Source: Marsupella aquatica (lineage: Eukaryota > Plantae > Marchantiophyta). From it: 64,000 nt of DNA. The notes under the pieces were generated by a model, which saw only the letters and a program-made list of their open reading frames with translations, was not told where the DNA came from and did not search any database. The stretch spans positions 2,434,457 to 2,498,456 of the forward strand of contig OZ316894.1 of assembly GCA_973895155.1 (NCBI GenBank). The letters are read 5' to 3'. Shown in pieces: positions 26,243 through 64,000 of this stretch (positions are counted from its first letter, which is position 1; each line of letters starts with the position of its first letter). The translations under genes were made by a program, and so were the position numbers.

Positions 26243-26380
26243 GGAAACTGAGCATGAACCTTGGTTGGGCTCAAAATCGAACCCAACCTCTCCAGCCTAT
26301 GACCTTGACCTTCAGCCTGTATTGCTTTCCACTCCTTAATGGAAGCAGAGCGGTCCCTACACTCATGCCGACGACTTCAA

Positions 26381-27680
26381 CAGATAAGCAAATTTAGAAG
26401 ACACGAATGTCATGGTATTCAAAGAGAATAGAAGAACTCGCAAACATCCATGTCATGGTATTCAAAACATGCACCTCCAACATTCGTCGACATGCAGACA
26501 ATGTTTGTAAAGTCAGGATGCAGTCAGTCATACCTAGTGCTTCGACCGAGAATCTCCCCCTTCAAATCAGACGCAGATCAATCCCTGTCATGAAGTCCAC
26601 TTTGCCTAGAGCTTGCAGGCAACCACAAAATCCAGAGAGGAAACTTCATTCACAAATTCAAGGATAGGATTCAACTGCCATTGGAAACAATCCCTACACT
26701 GTTATCCACGTAATATTGGAACTATGTAGTGCCAGAACCGGAAGACATGGATGTGATGGTGATCAAAAATTGCAGAATGCAAGAGACATTCAGGTAATGG
26801 TATTCTGCGCATCAACACGATGCAAAAAAATGCAGGACACAGTATCTTGGGCTACATTGACGGACAATCCTCCTCTGAAAGAACAACAGAGGAAAATACT
26901 CTCACCAAAACAAAACAGCCCATCAATGTTTGCAAACCAAGAAGATAACAGGTTCAGATATAAGCAAAACTAGAACACACGAATGTCTTGGTATTCAAAC
27001 AGGGCAGCAGAACTCAAAGACATTCATGTCATGGTATTCGAAACATGCACAACATTCAAACTTGTCGACATTTAGACAACGTTTGTAAAATTCAGGATGC
27101 AATGCACGTCATGAAGCATTCAGAAATAACTTCTTCAGCACTTTGCAAACAATGGTGCTACAAGATTTATACTTTGGCAAAAAGAGCTGAAATCATACCT
27201 AGTGCTTTGACCAAGAAACAAAGACATGCGGGTTCAAGTGGGATGCAGATTAATCCCTGTCGTGAAGTCCACTTTGCCTAAAGCTCGTAGGCAACCACAA
27301 AATCCTGAGAGGAAACTGAAGCCCCCGCTGAAGCCACAAATTCAAGAACAGGATTGAACTCCCAAATGCAACCTAGCCCTACACTGTTATCCACGTATTC
27401 AAACTATGCAGCAGAACCAGAGGACATGGATTTCATGGTGACAAAAATGCACAAGAACAAGGAGACTCTGCAAATGATCTGAACTAATCTGAACAATGCA
27501 AAACTGAACAATGTAGAAAAACTTACGACCAGATAGATAAGATAATGCAGGAGACGTCATTCATGTTATGGTATGCAGGACTAAACAGTTTCTTGGGCTA
27601 CATTGGCGGGCGGACAATCCTCCTGTGGAATTGAAGAACAACAAAGGGAGACACTCTCACCAAACCAAAACAACCCACCA
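26381..27680. repeat. Diverged direct duplication (~570-700 bp) inside the MULE, upstream of the minus-strand gene
   Basis: TAAGCAAA..TAGAA.ACACGAATGTC.TGGTATTCAAA, ATACCTAGTGCTT, AATCCCTGTC.TGAAGTCCACTTTGCCTA, CCCTACACTGTTATCCACGTA and CTTGGGCTACATTG each occur twice, from ~26385 and ~26961. Confidence 0.85.
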
Positions 27681-27942
27681 ACAATCTGGCAGGCGCTACA
27701 ATGTGAAAAAAATCTCGGAGAATGGGGTGAATGAACACTACTCGATCCTAGCAGTGGGCCGCAACTCAAACCTCAAGCTCTCCTTTGGCATCGATCAATG
27801 AAATGTGCACACGATCAAAGCATGAACCTCCCCAAAATGGCCAGCCGCCAGCAGCAAACAACGCCTCACCTCCATGAACGATGCCTCAGTCCCCTCCGTA
27901 AAACAACGAAAAATGTCGATCCCACCCTCGACAAATGACTCT

Positions 27943-28288
27943 CGCGCTTGACCCTAAACCGCGCCCCGACAATGTGCGCCCTAAAACAGAAATTTTGTTG
28001 AATACATAAACCACAATGTATTCACACTCATAAGGGACCATAGTGCGAGAACGCAAAACCGCGTAGTTGCGCCCTACTGCAGCGGAGTCTCATGGGCGAC
28101 TGCGGGAGGCGACCCTGCGTGGTGGCATGGCTCCCAACTGTGCAGTATGGCCTTTACACGGGGCAAACTGGCTTACACGGGAGAAAAGGGTACGGGCCAT
28201 AATGAGGGGGCTAATTGGGGCAAAAAAGTTTGGAGGGGGCTGATCAAGTAAAGTTTCTCCTGGAGGGGGTCTATTGAGCATATCCCTC
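27943..28288 (-). repeat. Right terminal inverted repeat of the MULE
   Basis: Reverse complement of 15579-15936 with few substitutions. Confidence 0.95.
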
Positions 28289-29408
28289 CCAATTCTGCTC
28301 TAAGTATGGAAAGGGAGATTTATGTTCTTAATTAAAGAGACAATGAGAAGGGTGTCAATGAACCAAAAGCGTAAAAGCTATCACATCCAGGGAGGTTATA
28401 CGAGTACCAGACTAGGTACACGGGAGCATCTCTTTCGTGCAGGAACAAGGAAGTAAAAAATACCGATTTGTAAAGTTAACCTTTGTACAGTAGTGCGTGG
28501 ATTTCGCGGGCAACCCGCCGGTGAATCGATGGGGATGGCATGCGTGTGGGCGAGTGATGATGGGGCCATGGGGCATCGGGGCCTGTTGGGGCCTGTTGGG
28601 TACAGTCGCTCCGTCGGCGGCAGGGCCGCCCCGGAGTATATTAGGCCAGCCCCGGCCCGAGGCCCCATCTTGACAGCCCCTCAAAGTTGAAGCAGCAAGA
28701 GAACGAGAAACTGCGCACGAAGCGAGAGTCGAAATTGTCGTTCATGAACGTCGACAGAAGAGCGCAGCAGCCAGCAGAGAAAAGTGCCCGAGGTGCTCGG
28801 TATATGAGAAGCTTGTATCGAGAAAGCTGGCATTGGATTCTTCCTTCGCCAAAAAAAAAAACACACCTGCGTCCGAAGGCAGCATCGTGTCCATCTGTCG
28901 GTCTCTTCTTTCGCCATTGCGGGAGGGTCGCGAAGGTTTCAACTGGGTGCCAGACAGTCGTCTTCGAAAGGACACAGTTGTGTGCTGCTGCTCTGGCTTC
29001 ACCGACCGGCAAGCAGTCGTCCGACTCGGCTGATCGTGTTGTTTTGAGTCGGCTCTGACGCCTGTCTCGTTATCCGCATGTCTAGTGGGATTAGTGGCAC
29101 CTCTGCTTTGGATTTGGTCGAGTCAAACGAATATCACAGGATCGACTCTGGGTCTTGGCATTTCGAGTTTGTGGAGTGTGTGAAAGAGCTCACTGTTGTG
29201 AAAACTCTGCTGGTCAGTTAATTCAAGGAGTGAACATTCGGTAGTCTTGAGTACGTGTTGTGAAGGCAGAGGTTGCTGAGCAGGGAGCCAGGTGGGGTGT
29301 CTGTGTGTGAGGTCTGCGTATACGTTTTCGGAGTTTGTGTTGGTGGACATTGTGATCGGAGGATAGTAGAGCTAATAAGGGGGCAGGGTGGAGTCAGAAG
29401 TACCAGCG

Positions 29409-29969
29409 ATGGGAAACGCTCAAGGAGGGCACAGGAAGGGGTCCAAGCAGGTTGTTACAGTGTTGGAGAGTGATGGACGAGTGCTGGAATTTCCTCGCTC
29501 GTTGCGCGTTGCGGATCTGCTTTACGACCATCCCAAACACTTCGTATGCCATTCCAGCGCTCTTGTACTCCTACAGCAGGGGAAGATGTTGCCTCCGAAT
29601 GCTTGGCTTACGCGAGGGGAGGTCTATTTCTTACTCCCTGTTCCGAAGAACAAAGCTGAATTTAATCCTTCTACAGCGACAGCAAAGGTCGATCCGCAGC
29701 TCACATCTACGCAACCACGAAACGAGCTTAAAGCTGGTGGCACGATGAAGTTCCTCATTACAAAGCAGCAGCTGGCCAAGATTCTTGCTGAAGGCTCCAT
29801 CAAGGTTGAGGCCAAAGCTCCAGAGCTAATTTCGTCGCTACCTGAAACAAATGCACCTTCCAGGTCGACTTCATTGAGGGTGCTGCACCGTCCGTCTCCC
29901 CCTGTCGTGAAAAGATCGGTCACGTGGTCTCCTGGACTGGAGAGCATCTCTGAAGTCCCTGTCATGTGA
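29409..29969 (+). CDS. DUF4228 / PADRE family protein (186 aa)
   Basis: N-terminal MGN (myristoylation-type start); V..SDGRVLEF....RVADLL..HP.HFVCHS; L..GEVYFLLP; C-terminal WSPGLESISE. All are typical of plant DUF4228 proteins. Confidence 0.9.
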   Translation: MGNAQGGHRKGSKQVVTVLESDGRVLEFPRSLRVADLLYDHPKHFVCHSSALVLLQQGKMLPPNAWLTRGEVYFLLPVPKNKAEFNPSTATAKVDPQLTSTQPRNELKAGGTMKFLITKQQLAKILAEGSIKVEAKAPELISSLPETNAPSRSTSLRVLHRPSPPVVKRSVTWSPGLESISEVPVM

Positions 29970-38870: not shown

Positions 38871-40392
38871 TGTTATATCGTACTGCTGGACCCGTCATCC
38901 ACTGAACTATCTACCAGAAAACTATTCAATAAACAAATGATCGCATGAAAAGTCCCACCACACAAGGTACTTTCAAAGGGGCCAAGAAGCGGACCCATCA
39001 CTAAACCTCACTAAGGATGACCAAAGCAAAGCTCATTCGCTATGGTCAGGCACTCATTGAAAACAGGCCTTGCAAAAGTAACCTTGCTAAAGGGCTATGT
39101 GAGCCATTGCTTTTATTAGTAGGTAATGAGCAATGAGCAAGATCAAAGCATAACCACATTTCTTATGGACCCCATGACCCACACAACATGCATATTATTC
39201 TCTAATGACTAGTCACTCCGATCTATATCTAAACACAATCATTGAAACAATGGAGGAGAACCCACCCAACGTCATTGCAAATTGGAACCATTGGCCCCCA
39301 CCTATCACTACTCACAATATGCCCTCCCTACACCCTAGCTCTAGAGGGAGCATATACACTCTAAACCCAGGCCCAAAGATTGCCATGTCATAAATAAACA
39401 GCTCATCTACACAGCTTTCTTTTACTACGACAAGCATTTTGAACGACGACTAAGGCTTCCACGTAACCAAGGAACCACATGATACTAGAGTAGGAATCAT
39501 GATACCAAATTAAACTGCTATGATGCATGCACAACACCTTCATTCTTAGGTAACAACATAATGTAAACCTCTTCCAAAAAAGGTAGTCCAACTACATTCC
39601 CACCGTTTCTCATCGGAAATCCAAACGCACGGTCCAAACCAACGACTCTCTTGGTAGAGTATGTGGCTCTTTTTTCTTCTCTTAAGTTGATTAAGGTGTA
39701 GTATGACACCCTCATCATTCTTTTTATTGTAATTGTAACGTGCGAGCAAACAGTAAAACTTTTCCTCGCACGAGCAAAAAAAAAATCTTGCATGACCCCT
39801 ATTTTTCTACATGCAACTGCCTCGCTATCAACTACCTGGTTGGTAACATCCCTTTTGGGGACTCCCTTTATGCTAGCGAGCTCGCTAGCCATCTGGAGTC
39901 TTTAAAAAAACACACAAAATGTAAAAGGCACCAAAAAGCAACTGAAATTTGGAGCCATTATTGTCTCGCTATCAAAATCTCCTGTTTGCTCGCAACATAG
40001 AATACCTCCTTTTTATTTGAGACCAATCACTCTGTTGACATGGTCTTCTTGTGCGGATCATCTGCTGTGTTAAGGCATGCAAATCTTCTCTGTAAAGCCG
40101 GGTTTTCATGCCTAAGTACATGGTTATGGGTGCTGCTCTCCATGTCCCTGGCATGGCTGTCAAGTCTTAGGGTTCACCATGCATTTTGCTGAGCCCTTGG
40201 TTTGAATTTCATTTGCACAACTTAGGGCCATAGAGTAAGCATTCTTGCAGGGTGAGTTTTTAAGTTCTTGGAGAAAATCCTATAATTTGTTAGGCACACC
40301 TTCAGCTTCATCCACTCATGCATCCATGTACTATTAAGGTTGGGCTCATCAAAGATAACATAAAGATGCTGTGAGGAAAGAACATGACCAGG

Positions 40393-43300
40393 TGTGACAC
40401 GGGTAACGTGTCACTTAACCGAACCCAGGTCGTAGATTAGGTCTTATACGGTCGATTAGGACCGTAGCCATAGCATAGAATAACACGTATAGCCGTCTGT
40501 TGCCATTATGAATAGATTAGGAGTAGGTTAAGTCGACCGAATGATTAAAAATTTAGGAGGAGGATTATTACGCGCGACCAAGGTACGGTGGCGGCGATGG
40601 AGTAAAAATCCGTTAGAAGAATCACGCTTGGACCGAGGCGCCGACTTCAGCTCATTATCAACGACCAAAACGGCCTGGCCTTCTCACGCTCGGGCTCATC
40701 CTGGCACCTCCATAAGAGAGGAGCCGATGGCACTGCGGGCCATTTGCTCATTTCTACCTTTTGGAATTCGCGGACGCTGCCATTCACTCGCCTTTTTGCT
40801 CGAATCAAGCTGACCTTTACAAGGAGATTATCAAGGGATAAGAGCAAAATGTGGCGAGATTTAGTCAGGACGAGCAAGGCCTCCACAAGCACGAGGACCA
40901 GCCGGGTGGGAATGCGGACTCGACGAACCGGACTACAAGGTTAGTATGACCCTTACAGCCTTGGGATTTTGGACCTTGTTTGGCGAGGTAGGTGCTAAGT
41001 TCTCCGAGACTTACTGGTACTCTTGTCCCGAGAAAGCCGCTTACGAACGAAGATATGCGAAGCTGGTGGCCAAGGTAGCACTGGTTAATTGCGAGAAGAC
41101 AGCCATCACTAGGGATTCCAGCTACAACGAGCTGCGAGACTACATCACCGAGCTATATCTCAGCGAAGGGCTTAGATCGGTAGCAGAGGCGATTCTTGAG
41201 GTCCCAGCAAAGTTCTTTAGGCTGAAGGGCAGCCAGCGGCTTACTCAAGCGGAGTTCGACAAGATTCCGGGGTACCTAGACCAGCAGATCGCAGCCGAAA
41301 AGCGCCAAGAAGACATCAGCAGACAACGGGAAGCGGTGCGTAATCTTACTTTCCTCGGGGAAAGTTCCAACGCCTTCGACTGGGATATGGCCACCCCAAC
41401 ACCACCAGCACCTCAGCCGATGACCACCGGCGTACCTCCGAACCGGTCCCAAGTCCGACCAGTGATCAACATAGAGTGTTCTTTGGGTTCCGAGCGAGTT
41501 AGTCCGCAACTCGAGCAACGTTCTCATAAGCGGCCAAGGACGACGCCGGCCCCCGAATCAACAGCGTGAACCAATGCGGCGCCTGCACCTGCCCCGGCAA
41601 ACCCCCCAGTCAACCAGACCCGATGGCCCCCGGATAACCCGACGGCCCCCGGATAACCCGAAGTCCAACTTATTACAGGTGATCCGCATCCCCGAAGTAG
41701 TCTGGATCGCGATCAAGAAACTTGAACACGCGGACTATCTCAAGGAGCATCAGTTGGAGCCGTTCGCTCACTTGCTATGGAGACCATGCGCCGCCGGGCA
41801 AAAGGAGATTTGTGAGTTCATCTCCAATTTCGACATCGACGCATCGACCACTAAGGTTTCAGGGCAGACCTTATCACTCACGGAGCATCGGTTGGCACAG
41901 ATCTTCTGCCTACCAACCGGGCCGGTGCCGGTTGAACTCCGAATTCGGGATAAGGAGTATACACCTCGGCACTTCAAACCCGAGGGTAAGACGGACAACG
42001 GATACAAGCAGGGGTCGTGCACCAACTTAATCTACATGGAGCGGCTTAACTTCATACGGACTACCCTACACATGATTGAGCCACGATCCGAGATCTCCCT
42101 CTGCACGATCGTACAGGTGGAACAATACAAACGGTGGAACTGGGCCCAATTCTTTTACCATAGATTCTCGGGGGAGCTGAAGCGGGCTCAGGGTGGTATG
42201 GCTATTGGGGGGAAGACTTACTTGGGAAGTCATATCGGCATCATCCTCGCCTGGTACAAGGCACGGCGGGAGTCCAGAGGAAAGAATATGGCCACCTCAG
42301 CCCCGACTAATGTCACCCCCGCCCCAGAGGAGGCAACCCCGAGCGCGCGGACTACCGCCCCTCGGCCAAACCCCAAGCCAGAATCCCCGACTAATACTCT
42401 GTCACCTCCTCCTGTTGAAATTCCGCCGCCCCTTTCCGTCGAGCCTCCGCTACCCGTGGTACAACCACCCCCAATCCCTCCACCACCTGAAGAAACCTTC
42501 CCCTCCCCAGCGCAGACTACGGAGGAGATCGTTGCCCCGCCCAAGGAACCACCGGTACCCGAGAGGATGGAGGACTACCAAGTAGCCCCGGGGACCATGG
42601 CCGACAACCTGGTCCAGAAGTTTAGCCAGACTATGTCTGGGGAGCTGGCGACGTACATCGGACAACAAGTCTCGGTGTACTTTCAACCAGCCTTCTTCAT
42701 GTTAGAGCACCAACCACGGATCGTAAGCCACTTGGAAGAAGAACTCATGGCGAAGGGGAATGAGATTGGGCGCCTCCAAATGCTAGTAGAGCACCTTGAG
42801 GAGGAGGCCACTACCCGCCACGAGGAGTTAGTCCGCACCGTCGAACAGAGGGATGAACTAACACAGGAGTTGAGCGAAGCGCAAGCAGATCTCAAGAAGC
42901 TGGACGATACCGTGCTTCAATTGTGCTCAGAATCTTTGGCTCGGGTTACCAACCTGACCGACCTCAACAAACAGTTGCTGCAGGCAACGTAGCAGGTAGC
43001 TAGTCTCTCCGCCGAACGGGATAAATTGTTGGCGCATGACCAGACCCATCACGACTCCATTAACCAGCTCAACCTGGAGGTAGCGCGGCTCCAGACAGAG
43101 GCCGATGAAGCTGCAAACAAGGCGGAGGAGGCGGTGCGGGACAATAAGGCCTTGCAGGATCGCGTTGCCCTGCTTGTCCTCCAACGGGGAAAACCTGGGC
43201 CCACCTCTGATCAAGGTGGCTCGAGGTCTCGCCCCGACAGGGGGACAAACCCTGGTCTGACCACAGCACACACATAAGGGGTGGTTAGCGAAGGGTGGAA

Positions 43301-44248
43301 GCAGGCGCCGCGCGAGGCAGTTGAGTCAGCGGCATCTTTTGGTTAAGCGTAACAACAGAATAGCTGTCATTAGGCGCCGATTAGCGGCAGTAGGAAGAAT
43401 TAGGACCAAATCAGTTAGGAGCAGCCAGCGTAGGATGGAGTCCATCAATGGACTAGATTTTGTCAGTAGGCTTAGCTGCTGCCATTCCGGTTAGCACTCT
43501 TGTCGTCAACGGTCAACCAGTCAGTACGGCACGGCCAGTTAGTCAAAGGGTAGTTAGTCAGTAGGTATTGCCCCGAAAGGTAGTATCCTCCGCTTTCCTT
43601 CCGCAAACATAGTATTTAGGCTTCCCCTTCCGCTATGAAAAGGGAGAAGGCTTAGTTATCTCAGCAGAAGAAAAGGCGAGACACGGGGAGTCCCGGCCTG
43701 AGTAGGGTCAGAGCGCACCAAGGAGTGAGAGCCAGAGTCGAGCTTGCTGGGCAAGTGCGAGGCAGGGCCTCGTAGAGACTGGGCATCGACTGCCGTTGGG
43801 CCTGCTGACCCCCTTAGAAGTCGAGTCAACCATGTAAACTGATGCTTCGCTGAGTAAATGTAGTCTTTTCCCTCTAATGTTTTCGCGAGTAACTGGTGTT
43901 GTGTGTATGCTTTGTCTGGGCAAAGGCGCCATTTTAAGGGACGTACCGGGTGCGGACTAATGGTAGGGATTGCCACCATTGCATGTCACAAGGTTCTGTC
44001 GCGTCGATGGCTTGAAAAGCCTCAAGCCGAGAGTTAGTCCGAGTCACTAACTGAGGGAAAATTCCAATGGTGGAAAATAAATATACCTATGACTAGTACG
44101 AATTGCGTAAGTGTTATACCAGTAAGTATATCGACTTAGCGGATCGGGGCCACTACACACCTCCTTGCCCGAACCCTCACCCCTACTGGTGGTCGAGGTT
44201 GCGCCATGGAACTAAACTGGATTTAAGGCCCAGGTTAGGGACGCGACA
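40393..44248 (+). mobile_element. 3.86-kb TG...CA element with 5-bp TSD; probably a giant solo LTR carrying an ORF (element A)
   Basis: Starts TGTGACAC, ends GGGACGCGACA, and is flanked by CCAGG at 40388-40392 and 44249-44253. It is GC/CpG-rich relative to its flanks. No internal LTR pair, gag or pol motifs were seen. Confidence 0.82.
40727..43277 (+). pseudogene. Disrupted long ORF of element A (reconstructed ~840 aa): retroelement accessory domain, Pro-rich linker, C-terminal coiled coil
   Basis: ORFs 40946-41569, 41574-42992 and 43026-43277 fuse if in-frame stops (40811, 40862, 41567, 42990) are read through and one copy of the 19-bp duplication at 41619-41656 is removed. The C-terminus is heptad-rich (EELMAKGNEIGRLQMLVEHLEEE...LEVARLQTE). 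Confidence 0.75.
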
Positions 44249-44255
44249 CCAGGCC

Positions 44256-44578
44256 TGTGGGGAGAAATCAGATCAGGAAATACACTCCAAACATACACGT
44301 GCTCAATAGTTACATGGTTTGCCTCAAGGTTGGCTACGTCCACGGGAAGACCAAACTTTATTAACGGTTATGTGTCTACTCAAGCATCACCATAGCTCCC
44401 ATCTCTTCAAGCTCTCATCTCTTGCTATATCACTGTGTTCTCTCTTGAGAACTCTCTTGTGTGTTCTCACACCACATAGAAGTTGAAGAGATAAGGACCA
44501 ATTATTCAACTAGGGTTTACTCTAACCCTAGTTAACATACTAACCATAGTTCAACCCAAGACTGAGTTAAACTCTACA
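44256..44578 (-). repeat. 3' LTR of the copia element
   Basis: TG...CA termini; matches 53096-53410 over 315 bp with about 4 substitutions counted by eye. Confidence 0.95.
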
Positions 44579-44590
44579 AACTCCCCTTGA
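44579..44590 (-). other. Polypurine tract of the copia element
   Basis: Minus strand TCAAGGGGAGTT immediately precedes the TG of the 3' LTR. Confidence 0.8.
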
Positions 44591-44771
44591 CTCACGTCTT
44601 GGGAGGGTTCATAACATTGTCTTTTCCTTACAAGTTCCTCCGCGGGAAGTTCAAGACAGTAGGGCCAAAAGACCCTCCCCCTAATGCAAGGGTTAACTAG
44701 AACTAAGCCGTAGCCGATAACCCATCGGATGGAGTACTCATATAGAGACATTTTCTTGGTTAACTCTATAT

Positions 44772-45989
44772 TTACAATATTTGTAAATAATTACAATGCC
44801 TTGAAAAACTATCGGAGTCTAATACTTTGGTAAAAGCATCCGCTGGATTAAGTTTTCCATCAATCTTGACAAACTCAAATTCATCATCCGATAATGCCTG
44901 TCGGATGAAATGATAGCGGACATCAATGTGCTTTACCCTGCCATCCATCACCTGATTCTTGACAGTGTAAATTGCACTTTGACTATCACAATGAAGATAT
45001 ACACACTCATCTGATAAACCCATCTCCGTGACAAGCTTTTTCAACCAAATGGTCTCTGATGCTGCTTCTGCTGCTGTTACATACTCGGCATCCATAGTAG
45101 ACTTTGCAACACACTTTTGGAGAGTAGACTTCCAACTAATGCATCCACCAGCAAGTGTAAATACATATCCAGTTGTCGATCTCCTCTTATCCAGATCACC
45201 TGCATAGTCTGCATCCACATAACCTTGAAGCACTTTCATATTGTTTGAACTTGCATCAAACAATAAACCCTTCTTAGTGGAACCTCTGATGTAGCGCAAA
45301 ATCCATTTCACTGCTTCCCAATCAACTTTTCCTGGATTTGCCATGTATCTGCTTACCTTGCTAACGGCATAAGCTATGTCTGGTCGGGTGCATACCATGA
45401 GATACATTAAACTACCCACAGCACTTTCATAAGGAACTTTGGACATCAAACTTTTTTCTGTCGCATCCGATGGACAAAATGCTACAGAAATATTGAAATG
45501 CCTTGCCAAAGGAACACTCACAGCCTTAGCATTTGCCATGTTGAATTTTGAGAGTACCTTCTCTGCATATCTTTTCTGCGTCAGCCAAAGTTTGGCTTTG
45601 TTAACATCCCTAACAATCTCCATGCCTAGGATCCTCTTGGTTGTGCCCAAATCCTTCATCTTAAACTTAGAACTGAGTTGGGCCTTAAGCTTATCAACTT
45701 TGCCCCTATCCTGTGCTGCAATGAGCATGTCATCCACATAAAGTACAAGGATGACAAGCTTAAAACCTGTGTTGTTCACACGCCTTATGTAAACACATGG
45801 ATCGTACACGCTTCGCACAAATCCAAGTGATTTCAAAAATTCATCAAAACGCTTGTTCCATTGCCTTGGGCTTTTTTTGTTGAGTAAAACCCTTGGCTAC
45901 CAACCGAGCCTTAAATATCTTTTCAGCATCCTCCGTGGGTCCATCTTTCTTCCTATACACCCACTTGCTGTCAACAGCCTGCTTGTCAC
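44772..45989 (-). pseudogene. Copia reverse transcriptase and RNase H (C-terminal part of pol, internally deleted)
   Basis: KWVY...KARLVAKGFTQ, SPRQW, LYVDDML, MKDLG, YESAVGSLMY...TRPDIAYAV, GYVDADYAGD..RRSTTGY, KHIDVRYHF, NPADAFTK. Confidence 0.95.
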
Positions 45990-47035
45990 TGTCGTATGCT
46001 AACAAAAGCAAATATCATCGAATATATGCTAAAAACTCGGTGTTCGTTCTCGTGGAAGAACAAGAATGGGATGAAAAGATGTTTTAAAGTGTTTTGAGTG
46101 GTTTAGAGATGGTACTCAACATCTATAAGAAAAATAGAATCTTAAACAAAACACAAGGAATTAATAAAATAAGAACAAAGTGACATTTGCTGTATAACAG
46201 AATCTTAGAGCTTTTAGAGGTATAGTTTAGCAATATTGAACTCCGTCACCATGTCTTAAGAAAGAGCTATGGCATTATTTGAGACGTTGATAAGTCAAAC
46301 ATAACCTTGCTATAATTGCTCTCTAGGTTTCTATCATAAATCTATGTTTAAGAAGTGTCTATGCTCACAAAACCCAAGATAAGTTTCGGATTGTGTGTAT
46401 AGTAGTGTGTCATTAAAATGCCGGCAACATGTTTCCTTCTTCAGCGATGCGCAATTCCAAAGAAAAACTAATGCACATTCAGTATACCACAATGGTACTT
46501 CAAATCCGTGAATTAAGAATGTCGCTACTTCTTAATCTATAGATTTCTCTTTTCTTGATTTCATGCAATACTTATCTTCCAAATATAAGTCCTTCATGTA
46601 AATACAGAAATGGACAACAAATGTTGTAGTTTGGATTAGGCACCGACCAACGGATCTTCTAATACATTCCACAAACTGTATTTTTATGGGTTTTACTTCT
46701 TATGATAATTGCAACATGCATTACCATACGAAGGAGGGGTAGACTCCTAGCACAAGTAATCAAATTCCAAGGTATGCAAATCTTCCTTGCAAAATTGCAT
46801 TACACGTACAAGGGACAAAACTCCAAGATGAGGAGATGCAAATAACTATCCACACTGTTTCAAAATGAGACTGGTATCACAATAAGTACATGAGATTGCC
46901 CACGGGCTAAGAAGAATGAAGAGACATGCCTCTTCATTTCCTAAGTCTAAACTAAGTAAAGTAAAAGTCAACTTTGACTAAGGAATAGTCAAATGGTCAA
47001 AGCTAAGTAAAAGTCTACAAAATAAAATACTAATC

Positions 47036-48874
47036 TCATACTATAATAGGAGGAGGGTCGACTACAAGTAAAGGGAGGCGAGCTACATAACCAAGGGCTA
47101 TCTTCCCTTTGGTCCTCTGTCCCTTCAAATATTGTCGACGGAAAAGGTCCTCACGATAACGAATCAAACGGGGCTCACTGGTCTTTCGGATGGGATGTCC
47201 ATCCGGTCCGATCCAAACAAAGTAATCTGATGGCCATGGAATGTCTGGAGCTGGAAGAGGGAAAGGTGCTATGACCTTTCTACAATGATAAACCCAACTC
47301 CAAAGGTCAGGAGTCTCAATCGTGGGTAATCTCAGCTTGTCGATAGGTAGCCATAGAATACCACGAGAAATCGGAACCATGTCGTAGGTGTGTGGAAAAG
47401 GAAAAGACTCACGACCAAACATAAGTGGAGGTAAAGGAGGTGCAAGAGGAGTGTGTGCGTCGATGAGTGACGTAATCATCCTATCAAACTGGGCGGGAAA
47501 GACAAAAAGAGGCTCAATGTCGGCAACAGAAGAGACAATAGGAGGCTGAGACATCAAAGGAGTAGGAGCTATAAATGGTACACTGGGAGGCTCTACAGTC
47601 TCAGGCTCAGGCTCAGTCTCGGGAATAGGCTCAGGAATAGGTTCATCTCCTTCCATGGTAGGAGAGGGAAATGAATCATCAAGGGGTGATAGGGTGGTAT
47701 CCTCAATAGAGGAAAATGGATCTGGAGGGGGTACTGGTGAAGGGGGTAAAGGAGATGGAGGGTGCTCAGGTGAAAATGTAGGAGGGATAGGGGAAAGAAT
47801 GGGATCAGGTAGAGGGGGTGTAGGTGAGGATGGAGAAGGGAGTGAAGGGTCAGCAATAGGTAGCTCCGGCTCATCCACATCCATAGGGTGATCAGGCTGT
47901 GGTGAAGGTGCAGGGGGTGAGACATGAGGGGGTGGGACGGTACGAGACTCAGAAAGCAAAGCACGAATACAGTCAAGCAACTGTAGAGGGGTACAACTCA
48001 AGAATCTAGTGGCCTCATCTACCAAATGCTGGTTGAAACCAACCACACTAGCTAGTCGCTTAGCATCACCAACAAAATCAGTCCATGACGTGTAAGAAGT
48101 GGAAGCAACAAAAGAGGGAGAAGTCATCCCTGGTAGATCTGGTGCTATCGTCTGCTCCACTGGAGGGGGTCTCGGAGATGTCGTCGGTGGTGGAGTCAAC
48201 TCTCTCGCTAACTCTGGCTGAGGTAGCTCAAAGTGTCTCGCTCTCCTCCTCCAATCGCTCAGCTCCACTGGTAATAAGCAGCCTCTCGAAAAGTAAATGT
48301 GCGCCAAGTAGGGTGTCAAATAGGTATCACCGGTAGTAGACAAGACAACCACCTGCTTGGCGATCACATCCGAAAGAGCTAAGGCCCAGTTGATCCTCCT
48401 CTTGCCGGTCCATGATACGATGATAGAGTTGGTCAAGTAAACCATAGCCCTGGTGGGTTTGGTCGGATGAAAGATAGGTACAAGGAATCGGAGTAGATGA
48501 GCTAACTCCCGGTTCCTGCACTGATCAATCTTCCAACCAGACCTCCGGTCCCTGGTACCTCTAAAATAGGGGACAGTCAAGTCCTCTCCAACAGAGATAA
48601 GTCTCTCTCCCTCCTGGCTCAACTGGTACACCTCAAAAACAACGGCGGTGGTACACACATCAGCTGAACCTCTAGTAGAACTCCGAAAAGTGCCAGTTCA
48701 GGGTGGACGAAGAAAATCGGCAATGATGGACCCATGCACCATATCCCAAGGAAGAAAAAGTAAGGAACTCAAGCCCATCTCTACCAGGTTACTAAGGAGT
48801 CTAAAGTAAGCCTTAGGACCTGGAGGTAAGGTCACCCTGATGGCCTTACTAATTGGTAAGCTTCTGGTGGCCAT
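47036..48874 (-). pseudogene. Long ORF of element B (612 aa with one in-frame TGA): retroelement accessory domain and Pro-rich region
   Basis: ATG at 48874 is in frame with the 540-aa ORF, with a single TGA at 48698-48700. Motifs GWKIDQC...LRFLVPIFHPTKPT, INWA and TYLTPYLAHIY precede a long Pro/Ser/Glu-rich tract. Confidence 0.8.
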
Positions 48875-49239
48875 AGCTCAGAAAATCTGAGAAGGCTCTA
48901 GAGCTCTCCTCCTAAAAACGGTTAAGCATTGAGGCTCAAGAATGAAATCTCAGGGATCTAAGGTAGTTGCGCTACTATGGGAGAAGGAATGTACTGAAAA
49001 GAGATAGAAATGAAGGAGCTCTGATCAGGCGAAGCTCTCGAAATTGCAATTTCTTCAATTCCAAGAAATCAGAGAGCATCGATGATCCAATACTCCTCAA
49101 CGTCTCATCAATAGCAGTTCAAAATCGGGGTGAACATTCTGTAGGCAGCTGCGCTCCTATAGCAATTGAAATGAGCTCGAATGGTGGTCTAACGAGTGAG
49201 CACTGAGGGTCGAAGCTCGCGCTCTACTGCCGGCCGCCA

Positions 49240-49570
49240 TGGACGTCCCTCAAAGAAAACTGGAGAAAAAGGTTTGGGCCGGCGCGGACATCACATTAGG
49301 TCGTGGCGGGGTGGACGTCCCGGACGTCCCTACGTGGAGGCCGTCCAAGACGTCCTCGAGTTTTTCATGCGGGCCGGCGCGGAAGGAGTCGGCCGTCCTT
49401 AGCAAAAAATGGGTGCCATCCCGGCCGTCCCTGTGTAGAAGCCGTCCAAGCCGGCGCCGTCTTCGCCGTCTTTCGCGAGGAGGCCGTCCCGGCCGTCCCT
49501 GCGAGGAGGCCGTCTAGGCCGTCACCTCATTTTTGAAGCTCCTTTCTACTTCTTGCCGTCTTGACGTCTA
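49240..49570. repeat. CpG-rich array of short GG(A/C)CGTCC motifs upstream of the element B ORF
   Basis: About a dozen GGACGTCC/GGCCGTCC-like 8-mers within ~330 bp. Confidence 0.75.
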
Positions 49571-49737
49571 ATATGTGAAAACCAGAGTAGCCTTGACGTC
49601 TTCCAATGGTATCCTTACCCATTTGAGCTTATACTAGCTTAATTTTGCTTAAAGGGCCTTATAAAAACTTTAAAAATTTTAAAAATTTATGGTTTTGATA
49701 CTTTAACTCTCTTTTTTAGAATAATCACCTAATTACA

Positions 49738-52326
49738 GTCACTAGGTAGACTTGTGAGTTCCCAAGTCTTGTTATCATGAAGTGATTTCATTTCCATGCG
49801 CATCACCGCCTGCCACTGTTGCTTCTCCATAGAAGCTAGGACCTATCGAAATGAGGATGGATCTCCATCTTCTGTCACCAATGCATCAATAGATTCTTCA
49901 TCCAAATCCACTTGATCAGAAGGAAGCCAAGTTCTATACCTTTCCCGGGCTTGATGTTTGCGAGTTCCTCTTCGCAGTGAAGACTCTGACTGATCTGATT
50001 GTAGTGTGCTTTGCCTTACAGTGGTGTCAACATATTCTTTATCTGACACATCCTTTCCCCTTACATCCTCTAGAGGAGGAGATTGCTCTTTGTTAGTAGT
50101 AGGGAATTGATCTATCTCCCCCTCCTTCAATGATTTTTCTTCATTGAAGGATACATCCCGACTAACAAGTAACTTGCAATCAACTGGATCCCACAACCGA
50201 TAACCTTTAACTTCATGCTGATAACCAAGAAAAATACATTTCTGGGCTCTAGGATCCAGCTTAGTCCTATTGTTGCTAGGAACATGTGCATATGCTTCAC
50301 AACCAAAAACCCTAAGCTTTGAATAATCAGTAGGTCGATTGTGCCATAGCTCAAAGGGGGTTTTGTAAGTAATTGCCCGACTAGGAGAGAGATTTACTAG
50401 ATAAGCAGCTATGTTGACAGCTTCCGTCCAAAAGATTTGTGGCAATTTAGAGTGGCTCAACATGCTCCTTGCTCGCTCCAACAATGTGCGGTTGAGTCGC
50501 TCAGCAACACCATTTTGCTCAGGAGTGTACACAGTTGTGAGATGGTGAATAATTCCCTTATTTGCACAATACGTGTTGAACTCACCAGAGGTGTATTCAC
50601 CATCATTATCTGATCGTAGATATCTCACATTCTTTGCAGTATGTGTCTCAACTTGAGCTACCCATTATTTGAAGATGGAAAGCACTTCAAACTTATGGGC
50701 AATGAAATAAATCCAAACAAACCTTGAGTAATCATCGATAAACGATACATAGTATTGTTTGCCTGAATGTGAGGAAATCGGAGCAGGACCCCACACATCG
50801 GAATGAATATACTCAAGTACAACTTTAGAATGATGAATGGCAGTCGGAAATGGAGTTTTTGTTTTCTTGCCGACAATGTAATGATCACAAAAACTCAACT
50901 TGCATGCTTGCAATCCTGGTAGGAGATGTCGCTTGTGTAGGATTTCCAAAAAAAATTCACTCATGTGACCAAGTCGAGCATGCCATAAATTGATTTTCTC
51001 CTCCTGAGATGTGACCAGATTAACTTCGGCAAGAAGTGTGGTGCCTTCCAAGACATAGATGTTTCTTTTCCTCTTGCCAATAAAAACTTCAGTTGATCCA
51101 TGCGTGACTGTTAACACCCCATCAGTTGCACTCCAGTGATAACCCTTTGCATCCAAGTAGTCAAGAGAAATCAAATTCTTACACATTTCTGAAATGTGTC
51201 TGACATTTGATAGAGTACAGTACTTGCCACCGGGTAGTTGAATCTTTATGGATCCAATCCCTAAAACTTTGCAAGAATGATTATTTCCCATCAAAACAGA
51301 TCCGTTGATAGGAGTGTAGGATGAGAAAAGTTCACGCATATAGCACATGTGATACGAGCAAGCGGAATCCAAGATCCATTGACAATCCTCAACTTGGGAA
51401 GTGGTACACAATGCAAATCCTTCACTATCCTCTTCTCGAATAACTACTTGGGTTGAAGAACCGGCAACTTCCTTGAATGTGTCTTTGACGCGACAATCCT
51501 TCTTCATGTGGCCCACTTTGTCACACTTCTAACACTTTATCTCACGAGTAGACTTGGATGGTGATTTGGATCGAGATCTAGATCTGGATCTAAACCTCCT
51601 CCTACCAAAAGATTGGTCGTGGAACCTTCCTCGCTCCATGGGAAGTGGGTTAAACCTTTTGTTTTCATGAGATGGCTCCCTTGATTTGCCTCTTTCTACC
51701 AACAGTGTTGTTGATGATGAGGTTGAGGTAGGATGAGCTGAAGAAACCAGCTTAGACTGCATGTCATCGGTCAACAGGGCACTCACCACATCATTGTAGG
51801 ATATAGTTGTCTTATCACGGAATAGAAGAACTCGAGACAAAGATTGGTACGAAGGTGGTAGTGAACTCAAGAGTTGTAAGGCTTTCTTTTCTTCGCTCAA
51901 ATGCTCCCCCAAATTCTCTAGGTCAACCACAAGATCATTGAACTAATCGATATGATCTTGAATCTTGACTCCATCAGCCATTTTGAATTGCATGAGCTTC
52001 AGGCTTGCATACATTCAGTTTGACATCTCCTTCTTGTAGTACTTGTTGCGCAATGCTTGAAACAAGTCCGTCACCGTTTGTGTTGCTTTTTCCTCAAACT
52101 GCTTCTTCACATTGTTTTTCAGGTACATGCCAACAATACTTACCGCTTGATCCTGGAGATCATGCCAATCATCATCTTCCATCTCCTTGGGTTGAGATCT
52201 TAGTACCTTGCCTAGGCCCATCGCCCTAAGTGCATCCCTCACGTTACGTTCCCACATTGTATAGTCCATCCGACCATCAAATTTTTCCACCTCAAACCTT
52301 TGACCTCCAATCCTAGTAGTCGCCAT
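49738..52326 (-). pseudogene. Copia gag-protease-integrase and start of RT, with in-frame stops
   Basis: Gag FEVEKFDGR.DY.MW; zinc knuckle C*KCDKVGHMKKDC; protease WILDSACSYHM; LWHARLGH; integrase HSDVWGP, LRSDNDGEY and PEQNGVAERLNRTLLE. Stops near 52015, 51943, 51529, 50665 and 49843. Confidence 0.95.
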
Positions 52327-53095
52327 CGCTGGAATGCCAAATGTAGTGTGGAGTCATCTTCCGACAAGAATTAAACGTCGAATGCTCAGATGTGGGGTGT
52401 GAAAATAAGGCCAAAAATGAAAGTTGGTGAATTTTGAAACTGATCACTCCTATGTGTAGCCCACAAGGTAACGCTCCAAATTCTAAAAACGGTTTGTCAA
52501 ATGGGATCTCGAGTGCCGAGAATTTTTACTCCGACCGGAGGGGGGTAAAAGATGAAATAATTACCCCTCGAGGGAATCTCTTATGCCAAAGATTTCACTA
52601 GTATACTTTTTCAGAATTGAATGCACCAATACTTGCCTAGCTTCCCCAAGTATGCCTCTCCAAAAGTTGAAGTTGATCCGATTTTATTTGCCGCTCGGAA
52701 TTTTTGACCTTTGGTAAAAATTTAAGCCTCTGGAAAAAGAATCTTTTTGGGAAATTCCGTCCGCCCTTGTACAGCCCCTGTGGGGGACTTCACAGGGGGC
52801 ACTTCCCCCTGCCCGAGCCCTGTCGAGCCCTAAAAGGCCTCCTCAAAGTTTTCGACCTCCTTGCGCATCCGCGGAAGTCGCGACTACTCGCGGCAGAAAG
52901 TACCCCTCGGGGGATTCACTCAAATTCCCGTCTCAGTTTTTGATGAAATCCAATTCTGATTTCAGATTCAGAAAATTTGTTTCCGTTTCTGACCTTAGGC
53001 CTTCATTGCTTCACTAAAATGAGCCCCTGGTTGTGTGCTCCACACTTGTGAGAAGATTGAGTCCGATCTTCTTTCAATAGCTCCGCTTCAAAGAG

Positions 53096-53410
53096 GAAAT
53101 CAGATCAGGAAATACACTCCAAACATACACGTGCTCAATAGTTACGTGGTTCGCCTCAAGGTTGGCTACGTCCACGGGAAGACCAAACTTTATTAACGGT
53201 TATGTGTCTACTCAAGCATCACCATAGCTCCCATCTCTTCAAGCTCTCATCTCTTGCTATATCACTGTGTTCTCTCTTGAGAACTCTCTTGTGTGTTCTC
53301 ACACCACATAGAAGTTGAAGAGATAAGGACCAATTCTTCAACTAGGGTTTACTCTAACCCTAGTTAACATACTAACCATAGTTCAACCCAAGACTGAGTT
53401 AACCTCTACA
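53096..53410 (-). repeat. 5' LTR of the copia element (last 8 nt of U5 absent)
   Basis: Matches 44264-44578; followed on the + strand by the TSD AGGCC. Confidence 0.93.
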
Positions 53411-56400
53411 AGGCCCTTTGGATGCTCAAATCCAAAAACAAATGCAGTAACTTTGCAGCAGTAGTCTTCGAATCCACCTCCGCTACGCAAGGAGACTCTA
53501 CTTGACTTGAGGCACCACAAAACCTACAAAATGCTAATTTTTTGATAAACCTCGATATTTTATTGGATGACTAAAAGAGTATGTTTGAGCCCAAAAAGCT
53601 GTTTATTGTGGTCTCTTAAGTTCAGGCTACCCTCCTGAAAAATGCTGGGATGTTTTGGTGACACCTCCAAGACTCAATCCCATATCCTCATACATCACTA
53701 TTTTACAAAACTGCACTATTAATTTTGCAATTGTGCACTTTTCTTTAGGTACCTAGAGCACAGTTACTCAGAACCAAAACTTAGCTAGGTGCCTTTTTCA
53801 AATAAGTTAATAGAGTCCAAGTGAAGTGTAAAATTATTATGCTTTTGCAAAACAAATGACTTAAGAAAAGTTCCCAATTGTAGATTTTTCATGATATAAG
53901 ATTGAGTGTTAGGAGATGTCCAAAAAGTCCCAACTTTTTTCAGTAGGTAGATCACACCAAACAATTTTCAGCTCAAACAAAATCTCATCTCAGATCACCA
54001 AATAAAACAATAGGGATTATCAAAAATGAACATTTTGTAGGTTTTGTGGCACCCCCAGCCAGCCGGTAGTGGCACCGTGTGTATGGGCCTGTGTAGTGGT
54101 GGCGGACCCAATGACGACTGCTGCAGAGTTAGTGCATTTTTTTGAATTTTGATGCCCAACTGTCCAACAGGCCTGGCCACATCCAGAATCCATCTTTGGG
54201 GTCCATCAAGTCCAAAAGATGCTAGGGGTGCCTGGTTAAGTCCTCTCCTGAGATGCAGGGCACTTGGCGCAGGTCTTTGTGTCTTTTTTTCTTCTCCTTC
54301 ATTGTGTGGGTTTACTTGGATATATAACTCCTTTCCTAGTGATTCCTCCCATCCTTACATATCATTCTAATCTCTGCATGATCCCATTAGTTTGTTATCT
54401 CTAGTAACTGGCATCCTTACCCTGGGCCTTAACCATTCAGAACTTGCCTTGTAAATGCTGTTTGTAGTGGCATTATCTATGAAGAAACCAATGTCAACTT
54501 ACCAGTAAATCTCCTTAGCACCCATTCAGAACTTGTGTTATTCTTTTTTAGTACCTGGCAATATTGATGGTCTGTCTTCCAAATTTATGAAGAAACCAAT
54601 GTAGACTTTTTTGAGTATGGAGGATGGCCAGTTTTACAAACAAACCACTTGAGTGGCCCATTCTGTTGGCCTGTAAGTTACTAGGGTGACTTTACAGGAC
54701 ATTGGAGGCAAATGTCTACCCTCCTACATGGCAACCAGTGGGCCCAAGTAAATGCTGATGTGGAGTGCTCATTTTCTCTACAAGTTTATACCACCTGCAG
54801 AGGTGGCTCAAACATTTCCAAACTTTGGCTCCTTCATTAAAAGGATTAGCATTTGTTGAAGTTTGGTATGGAGTCTATGTTTAGACCAAAAAGTGGGCCT
54901 TCTAGTTTGTTTAATTTGCTGAAAAAAGTTCACAAGTGCCCCTGATCTCTTGTACGGCTACCTTTATATTATGGACAACTCTAAAATGTCTTGAGAACTT
55001 GTATCAATGTATAAAATGCTAGATAAGGATCTATCCTTTGGAAAGTGGCCAAACTCATCCATAGTAAGTTAGGCCCAGACTTCTCTGTCACTCAGTCTAG
55101 ATTGCATGTAAAATATATCCTGAAAGAATTGTAGATTTTTTGACGCAGCAACTAACCCAATCTTAAGAGTTTTTACTTAAATTGACAATATTTTTGGGAA
55201 AGTTAGAAGATTCATTTCATAAAGTAGGATCTTCCCAGACTTGCCATCATGCACAATTGCAAACTCCATTGTGGAGTCTGTAGCTCAACATTGGCACCAT
55301 CGTTTGTGGTAACTCTAACGGAGCTTTAAGAGATAAATTGCATGGGACTTGCCACCAGAGTACTTAAACCCTCAGCAGTTCAGTACTAGGTCTGATGGAG
55401 GCACTCAAGAATTGAATAATTCTGCCTCCTTTCCACTTCTCATTCATAGGACGTTGTCTCCATTGTATGCCGGCATGTCCAGGGGAATGTCCTTCACATG
55501 CCCCCAAGATATGTAGTTTGAGTGGTCATTTCTTAGGTAAGGTTAGATGTCTGATCTTGAATCAAGCTCGGACTAATCAAGAAAAAGTGCAGGAATGAAG
55601 GGAAGTTGTGCCCTATTAGCCCATTATCTTGCCCATTCTATAATGTATAGGCATTCAATCTTGATGTTCCAGACTTGGGGGGGGTATGTTTTGCAGAAGT
55701 GTCACATCATATGCAACAGAGTATATAACCATTAAATGGTCCTGAAGGAAGATTTCCATAATTTTGTAAGTTAATTTTTTTGGCCCATTTTAAGAATAAT
55801 AGGCCCTCATTAAATGGGTCATATAAACTATGGAATTGTCAAAGAAAGTTAGGGTTTTTTGTGTCATGTACATGCATGAGACATGTGGCATGTTTTAAAT
55901 TGGTACACCTGTCATTATGCAATTGGTACACGTGCATTCCCCCAATAAGGAAGTTTCAGAATTTCCCAAGAAAATAGCCTAAAGTATGCATGATTGGGTG
56001 TAGGGTTTGTTTCGTTATGTTTAGAGGCAAACCAATTTCCGGGCCAATTGTTGCTACTGTCATTGGAGGGCTATGGAAGGGCATAACCTGAGGAGGCCAT
56101 TCACGAGGCTATTAAGACTCCGGTAGGAATTGAGTGTTAGGTTAGGCTAGGGCTTTTGGTATTCATGTTTGGGATTCAGACCAGGGAGTGAAGGGGCAGC
56201 CAACCTGTCGCCTAGTTCTAGTGTTCAGTTTGCACACATTGCAGCTTCACGCAAACTAACTAAGGTCAAAAGTTTGAGCTTGATGCCACAGTCTATAATG
56301 GACTGTAAAGGAGATGGGGGATGTACTGTCAAGTGGAGAGGTGGAGAGGTGGAGTAAATTGGATTGAGTGGAAAGGCAAAGCAAATTGCATGATCCTTAA

Positions 56401-62218: not shown

Positions 62219-63061
62219 ATGTGACAAGTTGACATGTCAGGAAACACATAAACTTGCCCGTCAGCTCTAACCGGGAAGATGTGTCTTGTTGGGTGCTTGG
62301 AATCAAGATATTTTTTAAAGATATTTGGAATTGCCCTCTTTTCATATCTTCAAAGATTAAATCTGGACCGTATAATGAGTAAAAAGGGCTGCAGCAGTTG
62401 AATTACAAGGACTCTGACCCCATTCAGGCATGGTGTCTGCCAATCCTACATGGCAACCATTTGGTCCAAGTAAATGCTGATGTGGACTAACAAGGATAAC
62501 AGCACCACTGTCCCCAAAGCAAAACCTGGTGGATCCAGGTTACTAAAATAAACCAAATATGTGATCAAAATAGTAAAAAAAGTGCTCTATTTTGTCCTCC
62601 CCAGACCTGGTGGACACTGGTGATTTAAAGGCCTAAGACATTTTATTTTTATTAATATTCATGTTGAGTCATAAAAATCTTGACTATGCATTCTCAAGAA
62701 ACGGAGCAAAATCAATAAGGGCATTAAGTTTTAAAATTCCATGCAAGTTGAAGAACATCATCCCAACAAAAACCCTAAACCTATCTGAGGTTATGGCCAG
62801 TAAAGTAGTCACAACCTGCGAGACGAGAATACTTACTTGTTTTTTTAGCAGATCAGAAAAGCACTCCATTAAAATTATTGTCATGAGAGTTGTCATATTG
62901 TGTGAGGCAAAGTGCACGCAGGTCTTGTGTATGGCCCCTCCCGCTATTTGCTCCCTCGCTTTCCTGCCAACAATGGAAGAGTAGACAATTTTTATTTCAG
63001 CACAGTAGACTGCCACCAAACAGAGGTGGTGACAGTCCCCAGCCCGGGGCCCGGCAGCGAG

Positions 63062-63427
63062 ATGGTGCTGCAACTGAGCAACGGGTTGCCGCAGCTGGGA
63101 GATGGCAGTCTAGTCCACACCTTAGGAGCAAAGTCTGTTGATGGCCATGGATTTTTAAGTACCCGAAATTGTGTAAAGGTGACTTTGGGATCTGGTAGAA
63201 GCGGAGCAAATGGCGCAGCGCAGATGAGGTGGGTGGATTTTGGAGGTGTGCAATTCAATGGCAGGCGTCAGCTTCAGCAGCAGAGAAATTACCAAGTTGT
63301 TTCGAGTTCCTTGAGGAATGAGGGCGGTGGGGAAGAAGAGCAGCAGTCCTCGGCCAGGCGTTCAGTGCACTTCATTGGCATTGGTGGGTCAGGGCTTTCT
63401 GCTCTGGCATTTTTGGCTCTGAATCAG
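63062..63427 (+). CDS. murC: UDP-N-acetylmuramate--L-alanine ligase, probably plastid-targeted; exon 1 only (gene continues beyond the window)
   Basis: After a ~100-aa Ser/Gly/Arg-rich extension comes VHFIGIGGSGLSALAFLALNQ, the MurC N-terminal Rossmann motif (HFIGIGGxGMS.LA), followed by the splice donor CAG|gtctgt. Confidence 0.8.
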
Positions 63428-64000
63428 GTCTGTTGCACGTCTCTCGTTCTTTAGCCAGCTTAAAAAATCATGCTCCGTTCGAATTGCCAATTTTAAGCTT
63501 CTAGAGCAATTCAGCAAAATTGTCCTTCTCCCCATTGCTCCGTCTCCTAATTTGGAACTCACGACATCCCAGTGTTCCGCCATCGTTCTGTTAACTTACA
63601 TTTTGTGGTACTTTGGCGATTGCATTGTTGTCAGAATATGGAATAAAAGGAATGTGTCGTTTTAGCTGCAGTCCAGGCCATATGCTCGGGCGAAAAGAGA
63701 AGGAGTGTGGTTTTGCCCCTACAATCTACACTTTTGGAGCCTGGCCATGGCAGGTCCTGAATCACTCGGCCAATTTCGTCGTATTTAAAAAAAAGGAAAA
63801 GTAAATGCATTCTGTTATTCGACTCATGAAACTACAAACAAGGAGCTCCATTCAAAGGCTTTCAGGACGTTTCGGTTTAGTGCAGAAAGTTAGGGCAAAT
63901 CATTCTTCAATTGGAACTGGAATGTCAGGAATCAAATATTACAAGAATCCTGCTTCCCTGCGAACTCCGGACATTGTATATAATCTGAACCCAGAATCAA

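Follow-up and report, generated by a model that had tools for sequence, protein, structure and literature searches.

Locus and insertion boundaries

We analysed a stretch of 64,000 nucleotides from the liverwort Marsupella aquatica (contig OZ316894.1; in the following called the window), in which two insertions of about 3.8 kb, A and B, begin with TG, end with CA and are each flanked by a 5-bp target-site duplication (TSD). Both contain long open reading frames (ORFs) that encode proteins with a common domain (Table 1). Judging from their structure and from the predicted fold of this domain, A and B are probably solo long terminal repeats (LTRs) of Ty3/Gypsy retrotransposons, each with a broken accessory gene of predicted VANC/PMD-like fold (PMD, plant mobile domain).

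TG..CA ends with a 5-bp duplication are weak evidence when taken alone, the chance level being 791 such pairs at a spacing of 3-5 kb within the window. The boundaries of A and B count as real because empty sites exist for both. In all four sequencing runs (X1 to X4) a contig joins position 45984 directly to 49738 and thereby skips 3,753 bp, and the flanks of B are the two halves of a single copia reverse transcriptase (RT) frame. For A, two of the four runs (X3, X4) pass from 40392 into the sequence beyond the far end of the neighbouring copia element with a single CCAGG, so that the A and copia insertions are both missing at this empty site. The coordinates, the TG..CA ends and the two TSDs given in a first-pass annotation of this DNA thus proved exact. 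According to the sequencing reads, both A and B are multi-copy insertions.

The same annotation had described A and B as lacking an LTR pair, terminal inverted repeats (TIRs), gag, RT and integrase, which our data confirm. None of six comparisons of the element ends revealed direct or inverted terminal repeats above the level of shuffled sequences, and a Pfam scan of the three long ORFs in the two elements detected no gag, RT or integrase domain. At the DNA level A and B show no similarity to each other.

Table 1. Features of elements A and B and of their host copia element; positions count from the first base of the window.
Feature	Position	Strand	Remarks
Element A	40393..44248	+	likely solo LTR, 3,856 bp, TG..CA; depth step, varied flanks, no terminal repeat, even cover
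Left TSD of A, CCAGG	40388..40392	+	single copy at empty site, runs X3 and X4
Right TSD of A, CCAGG	44249..44253	+	sequence match
Upstream frame of A, 207 codons	40946..41569	+	no family match; the one listed indel inside is 3 nt
Main frame of A, 505 codons	41475..42992	+	first ATG 41574; family domain about 41739-42242, Pro-rich tract, coiled-coil-like region
Tandem duplication, 19-bp unit, between upstream and main frame of A	41618..41655	+	sequence
Open continuation of the main frame of A past its stop, about 95 codons	42993..43277	+	sequence
TATA-like box, candidate promoter near a putative U3/R border of A	43633..43644	+	consensus match only
Element B	45990..49737	-	likely solo LTR, 3,748 bp, TG..CA; empty site in 4/4 runs, no terminal repeat
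Left TSD of B, GTCAC	45985..45989	+	sequence match, empty site
Right TSD of B, GTCAC	49738..49742	+	sequence match, empty site
ORF of B, 612 codons, one stop	47036..48874	-	N-terminal family domain about 48275-48874, Pro-rich tract, C-terminal domain about 47050-47464
Array of 17 GACG(G/T)C motifs upstream of the ORF of B, candidate binding sites	49242..49600	-	shuffle test
Host Ty1/copia element	44256..53410	-	LTRs 44256-44578 and about 53096-53410, 98.7% identical; TSD AGGCC; B inside its RT

Evidence for A and B as probable LTRs

Read depth jumps exactly at the first base of A in all four runs (in X2 from 3.9 to about 4,600-5,200), and 4, 10, 2 and 9 contigs whose flanks differ from one another stop at this base in the four runs (flank agreement 0.42-0.63; the best 24 of 27 loose contig ends were listed). 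The flank common to X1, X2 and X4 ends in CCCTTTTAGGGAGGG and, together with four bases that match the window, directly abuts the TG of A. It consists of a T-run and a polypurine tract (PPT). A PPT is expected directly before the 3' LTR of a retrotransposon. The many flanks and the PPT at its first base thus argue that A starts where a 3' LTR starts, which places its ORF in U3. With the first base of A as LTR start, its last base as LTR end and neither repeated inside, a single LTR that includes the ORF is the simplest account.

Other copies therefore share the 5' boundary of A, in some cases after a PPT; this boundary evidence comes from sequencing reads and concerns A. Cover is even across A (5,522-8,666 in X2, 11 bins) and fairly even across B (692-1,322 in X2), where summed read cover is not to be taken as copy number. 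The TATA-like box of A would likewise place its ORF in U3, and an AATAAA follows at 44076. One X3 contig skips about 2.4 kb of A (40692-43098) and thus represents a variant without most of the ORF. Taken together, A is very likely an LTR that contains the ORF, on the strength of its flanks and the PPT, and B is likely one as well, in its case by structure. The proposal of solo LTRs with an accessory gene inside is upheld to this extent.

As an alternative, A and B could be self-standing, non-autonomous TG..CA units that are moved by integrase in trans and were never one of two LTRs. No parent element was seen, and the same domain occurs in a CACTA element of 4.6 kb whose TSD is 3 bp long (see below), which suggests that the gene changes vehicles; both points would suit such units. 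Against them stand the PPT-like tract directly before A in three of four runs, relatives of the gene that lie directly behind pol, and the lack of TIRs. The separate class of integrase-moved elements considered in the first-pass annotation is thereby weakened, and we regard it as very unlikely.

State of the genes

The claim of one long ORF in each element holds as far as long ORFs with the domain and a Pro-rich tract are concerned, but neither gene is a single intact frame. In A, stops at 41567 and 42990 end the upstream and the main frame, respectively, and a tandem duplication lies between the two. The stop at 42990 is likely premature, and the upstream frame may be the N-terminal portion of a single longer gene. 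The stop of B is codon 59 of its 612 codons (48698-48700) and is missing from nearly all other B copies in the reads. As both window copies carry stops, neither gene is intact, and the suggestion that an expressible gene stays behind with every solo LTR is not borne out for these two copies. Among the 12 of 51 indels that were listed, the ones within the ORFs leave the reading frame unchanged (+3 at 41164; -1/+1 at 47165/47171), and those outside are 1-2 nt long.

Behind its ORF, B has a tail of 1,046 bp. Neither A nor B has a PPT followed by TG behind the ORF. A PPT relic picked out by eye in the tail of B was dropped, since 12 of 200 shuffles were equally good.

Protein family

The proteins of A and B match each other in BLASTP at E 5e-4 with colinear motifs. 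A profile built from 85 relatives of B, with A and B themselves excluded, gives the domain of A 19.7 bits compared to 9.5 bits for the best of 1,000 shuffles, and the frame of A is the only other significant match among 525 frames of the window. A comparison of the A and B profiles with HHalign aligns 162 columns at E 9e-4. By these measures the two proteins are remote homologues, in agreement with the colinear look-alike motifs on which the homology had first been proposed.

With HMMER, 273 relatives of the N-terminal domain of B were found at E<=0.001; four of the 20 that were looked up are proteins of Calypogeia fissa. The C-terminal domain of B is common to five relatives, and the upstream frame and coiled region of A had no match among the relatives fetched. 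Word-index protein searches with the A and B domains returned no match. Neither domain matched Pfam at the gathering cut-off, including PF10536 (plant mobile domain) and PF20167 (Transposase_32); among 54 family members, Transposase_32 matched a single one, at E 0.014 only, and the VANC family none. A viral-contig match for A (L001, E 3e-4, 39 residues) had no family-profile score and was dropped, and viral contigs searched with B and with the DNA motif gave nothing.

Predicted fold of the domain

The model of the B domain, built from 123 aligned sequences, reaches a predicted local distance difference test (pLDDT) score of 92.8. The single-sequence model of A (pLDDT 32.8) is of no use, and the fold of A thus follows from homology only. 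Compared with 48,161 chains by VIA-align, the B domain finds VANC21, encoded by the Arabidopsis MuDR-like transposon VANDAL21 (PDB 9lnj, 9lnk), in first place, with Z 7.7 and a root-mean-square deviation (rmsd) of 4.2 over 197 residues; the next chain has 4.1, and VANC21 is the only one with Z>=5. A second comparison with VANC21 gives Z 7.9 (rmsd 4.0-4.2 and 196-197 aligned residues across both). Foldseek returned no match at E<=0.001 for this domain, and VANC21 has a template modelling (TM) score of 0.43 compared to <=0.16 for the other rows listed. A library of viral folds likewise contains no match at E<=0.001. In a sequence search of the PDB, matches fall outside the domain, and VANC21 is not among the 18 sequences at E<=1.

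MAIN is a protein that contains a plant mobile domain. According to a 2026 paper, VANC is structurally homologous to MAIN (PMC13547354; this and most other papers are cited here from excerpts), and the plant mobile domain is also found in extra ORFs of Tat elements (PMC4408406). The modelled domain probably has a VANC/PMD-type fold. The first-pass annotation had guessed at a PMD-like protein with an anti-silencing role, a direction that VANC21 as the best match of the modelled fold and the link between VANC and MAIN support.

Three settings of the gene in metagenome contigs

A motif scan of metagenome contigs yielded 53 loci, of which 44 were verified by the hidden Markov model of the family and 9 failed the profile and were dropped. 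In the first setting (L029 and the pair L053/L004), pol, recognised by RT or integrase, is followed by a stop, a PPT and TG, and the ORF begins 570-660 bp further on; no PBS-like (primer-binding) site lies between the TG and the ORF. Two further loci (L026, L035) share the TG start of L029, preceded by unrelated flanks and followed by the ORF. In these relatives the ORF thus appears to lie about 600 bp inside the start of a Gypsy LTR, directly behind pol and PPT, which repeats the layout of A in other genomes. The ratio of nonsynonymous to synonymous substitution (dN/dS) is 0.03-0.35 in all 36 pairs of the nine-locus L029 family, of which three loci reach the LTR start, and <=0.21 in 35 of them. 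Selection, which had been named as a check, is thus indicated to be purifying in this family, with a dN/dS of about 0.1. Between L053 and L004 the ratio is 0.43, on 30 changes.

The second setting is a full Athila-like element (L003, 1-10852) that collapsed into a circle in the assembly; its gag, RT, RNase H and integrase as well as the extra ORF are intact. Its Gypsy domain order without chromodomain and its tRNA-Asp-type PBS, which matches that of FIDEL at 17 of 18 bases, are those of Athila-like (non-chromovirus) Ty3/Gypsy elements. The ORF is followed by PPT, TG, about 980 bp and the PBS. Two near-identical PPT-like tracts flank the ORF, and TG follows the downstream tract only. A GCGCTA-type motif is repeated throughout L003, ORFs included.

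In the third setting, 19 loci with 13 different left flanks share a CACTA start that lies about 780 bp ahead of the ORF. One of them, L032, also has the matching right end and a 3-bp TSD. This CACTA element is 4.6 kb long, its two ends lie about 1,190 bp in front of the motif and 3,370 bp behind it, and its main ORF belongs to the domain family. Going by these termini, the family with the VANC-like domain is also carried by a CACTA DNA transposon. The proposed location of the gene in an LTR is supported for A and, by structure, for B, and it appears in the relatives of the first setting, but it is not universal in view of the apparently internal ORF of L003 and of the CACTA element.

The arrangement in L003 keeps another explanation alive for B. 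One or both elements, B being the likelier case, may have arisen by deletion or aberrant priming from Athila-like elements with LTRs of about 1 kb and an internal 3' extra ORF, in which case the gene would not normally belong to the LTR. L003 shares both domains of B and has just this order of ORF, PPT, TG and PBS, the tail of B behind its ORF is of similar length to that of L003 (1,046 bp compared to about 980 bp), and the known extra ORFs of plant elements described in PMC7264820 and PMC6317226 are internal. However, had a short-LTR element lost one internal segment, one of its ends should recur inside the remnant, and no such repeat of either end is present in A or B. No PPT with TG lies behind either ORF, the tail of B shows no significant likeness to that of L003, and many flanks as well as a PPT meet A at the same first base. 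An origin by deletion or aberrant priming thus seems improbable.

Motif arrays

In the array upstream of the ORF of B, the top 5-mer occurs in 14 copies, a number reached by none of 100 shuffles, and the top 7-mer is equalled by one of 100. L053 has an excess of CCGGA in both non-coding parts, on either side of its ORF, and the CACTA element L032 contains a weaker motif array. In A, a pattern rich in TTAG did not reach significance. The observed/expected ratio of CG is 0.87 in A, 0.64 in B, 0.53 in the copia element and 0.33 in the flank; the high ratios of A and B were discarded as a sign of protection, since the youth of the elements explains them equally well.

Possible origin and function of the gene

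Several observations weigh against the interpretation of A and B as gene-bearing solo LTRs with a VANC-like product. At the start of A, a second flank is also common to three of four runs and is not purine-rich; flank sharing alone thus proves nothing, and it is the PPT-like sequence that makes the argument, which in turn rests on 30 displayed letters. Toward the 5' end of B, cover drops in run X3 (26,191 to 6,036). No PBS was seen behind A or B, in a listing of 24 out of 2,036 loose ends and with no search aimed at it. A full-length parent with two ORF-bearing LTRs was likewise not seen, neither in the reads nor among the relatives, whose contigs stop before the LTR end. L029 and L053 are short-read contigs that end before the LTR end and could be collapsed paths, and L053 has one weak PPT-like site 750 bp past its ORF. 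The ORF of L003 is most likely internal, upstream of an LTR of about 1 kb, so that an LTR location is not universal. Both window copies carry stops, and no enriched motif array was found in A. The HHalign match between A and B is weak (probability 23%, E 9e-4). The match to VANC21 has a Foldseek E of 2.0 at 10-11% identity; a Z below 8 may reflect a common arrangement, and a fold says nothing on function.

For gene-bearing solo LTRs the following origin can be envisaged. The parents would have been full elements with two LTRs of about 3.8 kb, which LTR-LTR recombination cut to one. The gene would first have lain between pol and the LTR as a 3' extra ORF, the likely arrangement in L003, before plus-strand priming moved to a PPT directly behind pol. 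Because the priming site sets the 5' border of the LTR, such a shift would draw the gene into U3. The two PPT-like tracts of L003 suggest this route, as priming at the upstream tract would pull its ORF into U3. We give this origin of the U3 gene about even chances.

The gene would be transcribed from signals in the 550-860 bp ahead of the ORF. Its product may be a chromatin factor that binds DNA sequence-specifically and, in the manner of VANC, acts on arrays of short CG-rich motifs in its own LTR. Proteins of the VANC type remove DNA methylation from the transposon family that encodes them, and their targets are often tandem motifs (PMC5735166). An anti-silencing activity that protects the own family is, on the basis of the modelled fold, a possible function, to which we assign somewhat less than even odds, with another chromatin role close behind. 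In the latter case the structure would be as proposed, and the protein would be a PMD/MAIN-like chromatin or particle-associated factor with a different job, such as integration targeting or element transcription. This is conceivable, if not the expected outcome: the fold match is moderate and implies no function, A has no motif array, and MAIN-type PMD proteins promote silencing, while the function of the extra ORFs is given as not known in the excerpts (PMC13547354, PMC4408406). On the other hand, the one structural neighbour that stands out clearly is an anti-silencing factor bound to DNA, and B, L053 and the CACTA element each have CG-rich, family-specific arrays next to the gene, similar to VANC targets (PMC5735166).

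Neighbouring features of the window

Seven bp separate the end of A from that of the copia element. The two elements inserted 2 bp apart, and their TSDs, CCAGG and AGGCC, overlap (44249-44256, 53411-53415). The 5' LTR of the copia element is without the last 8 bases of its 3' LTR (53085-53100 compared to 44256-44263), probably due to a small deletion, and no tRNA-Met-type PBS lies behind it. Elsewhere in the window, a Mutator-like element of 12.7 kb (15579-28289) with TIRs of about 360 bp (94%) and a 9-10-bp TSD holds a MULE transposase and an ORF with an RNase H1 N-terminal domain (20767-21513); its antisense ORFs at 24320-26296 have no Pfam match. Positions 29379-29969 contain a PADRE-domain gene, identified by Pfam, and 62906-63454 a frame that ends in what we take to be a MurC-like motif, with no Pfam match. 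Together with the liverwort relatives of the protein, these two features point to a land plant outside the seed plants.

Relation to known systems

In vertebrate retroviruses, sag of mouse mammary tumour virus, nef of human immunodeficiency virus and the bel ORFs of foamy viruses lie in or overlap U3. They resemble the present case in having an accessory gene inside U3 and hence in both LTRs, and their proteins are unrelated to those of A and B. Athila elements, for their part, have two PPTs, a feature that the excerpts of PMC1142308 and PMC2844528 do not state.

The 3' extra ORFs of Athila/Tat (OTA) Ty3/Gypsy elements, which include ORFs with PMD and coiled coil (PMC7264820, PMC6317226, PMC4408406), also lie downstream of pol in the same sense. 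Further likenesses, as far as the excerpts go, are the combination of domain and coiled coil (in A), the 5-bp TSD and LTRs of several kb, known from non-chromoviruses; the tRNA-Asp PBS likeness to FIDEL belongs to the relative L003. In contrast, those ORFs are internal in the excerpts, whereas here the ORF appears after the PPT, in U3, and is thus kept in solo LTRs. The A and B domains also differ from the PMD ORFs in having no Pfam PMD match.

VANC21 is the best structural match of the modelled domain, over 196-197 residues. It, too, is the product of a transposon-borne accessory gene, and short motif arrays lie in adjoining non-coding DNA of B and L053 (for VANC targets see PMC5735166). VANC21 contains a coiled coil (PMC13547354), and A has a coiled-coil region. 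The identity is 10-11%, and no match was obtained at the sequence level. Moreover, VANC is described as dicot-specific and MuDR-encoded (PMC13547354), whereas other plants carry the present family, in probable LTRs of retrotransposons and in a CACTA element. As its vehicles are not VANDAL/MuDR transposons, we do not class it as VANC, and it may nevertheless work like one.

The grass elements Retrosat2, RIRE3 and RIRE8 have LTRs above 3 kb, many solo LTRs and an extra ORF, and their termini TGTCACACCC..GGGCGTGACA are resembled by the ends of A, as far as described in excerpts of PMC3485330. Their ORF0 lies upstream of gag-pol and is treated there apart from the LTR; this comparison is one of position only. 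A published plant gene of this family in an LTR, or a VANC-like retrotransposon protein, was not found in titles and abstracts, a search that did not extend to subscription journals and supplements. The excerpts of PMC2864245, PMC12844716, PMC12859917, PMC13468544 and PMC5408684 contain nothing on LTR-located ORFs.

Implications

Plant LTRs are commonly regarded as non-coding, and what the extra ORFs of retrotransposons do has long been asked. Here, a conserved gene family under selection appears inside LTRs in at least two plant genomes, together with a likely ancestral internal arrangement. VANC21 bound to DNA and the candidate target motifs offer a concrete structural lead, by which the function becomes directly testable. 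More broadly, several plant Gypsy lineages might have moved a VANC/PMD-fold anti-silencing gene into U3 via an upstream PPT and so have made the solo LTR self-contained, a generalisation that we consider doubtful at present. If true, solo LTRs, usually seen as inert, could keep a whole trans-acting gene. The LTR would then hold promoter, gene and target motifs, and an intact solo LTR could keep its family unmethylated in trans. This would amount to an anti-silencing system of retrotransposons, based on a domain family that is also used by CACTA transposons.

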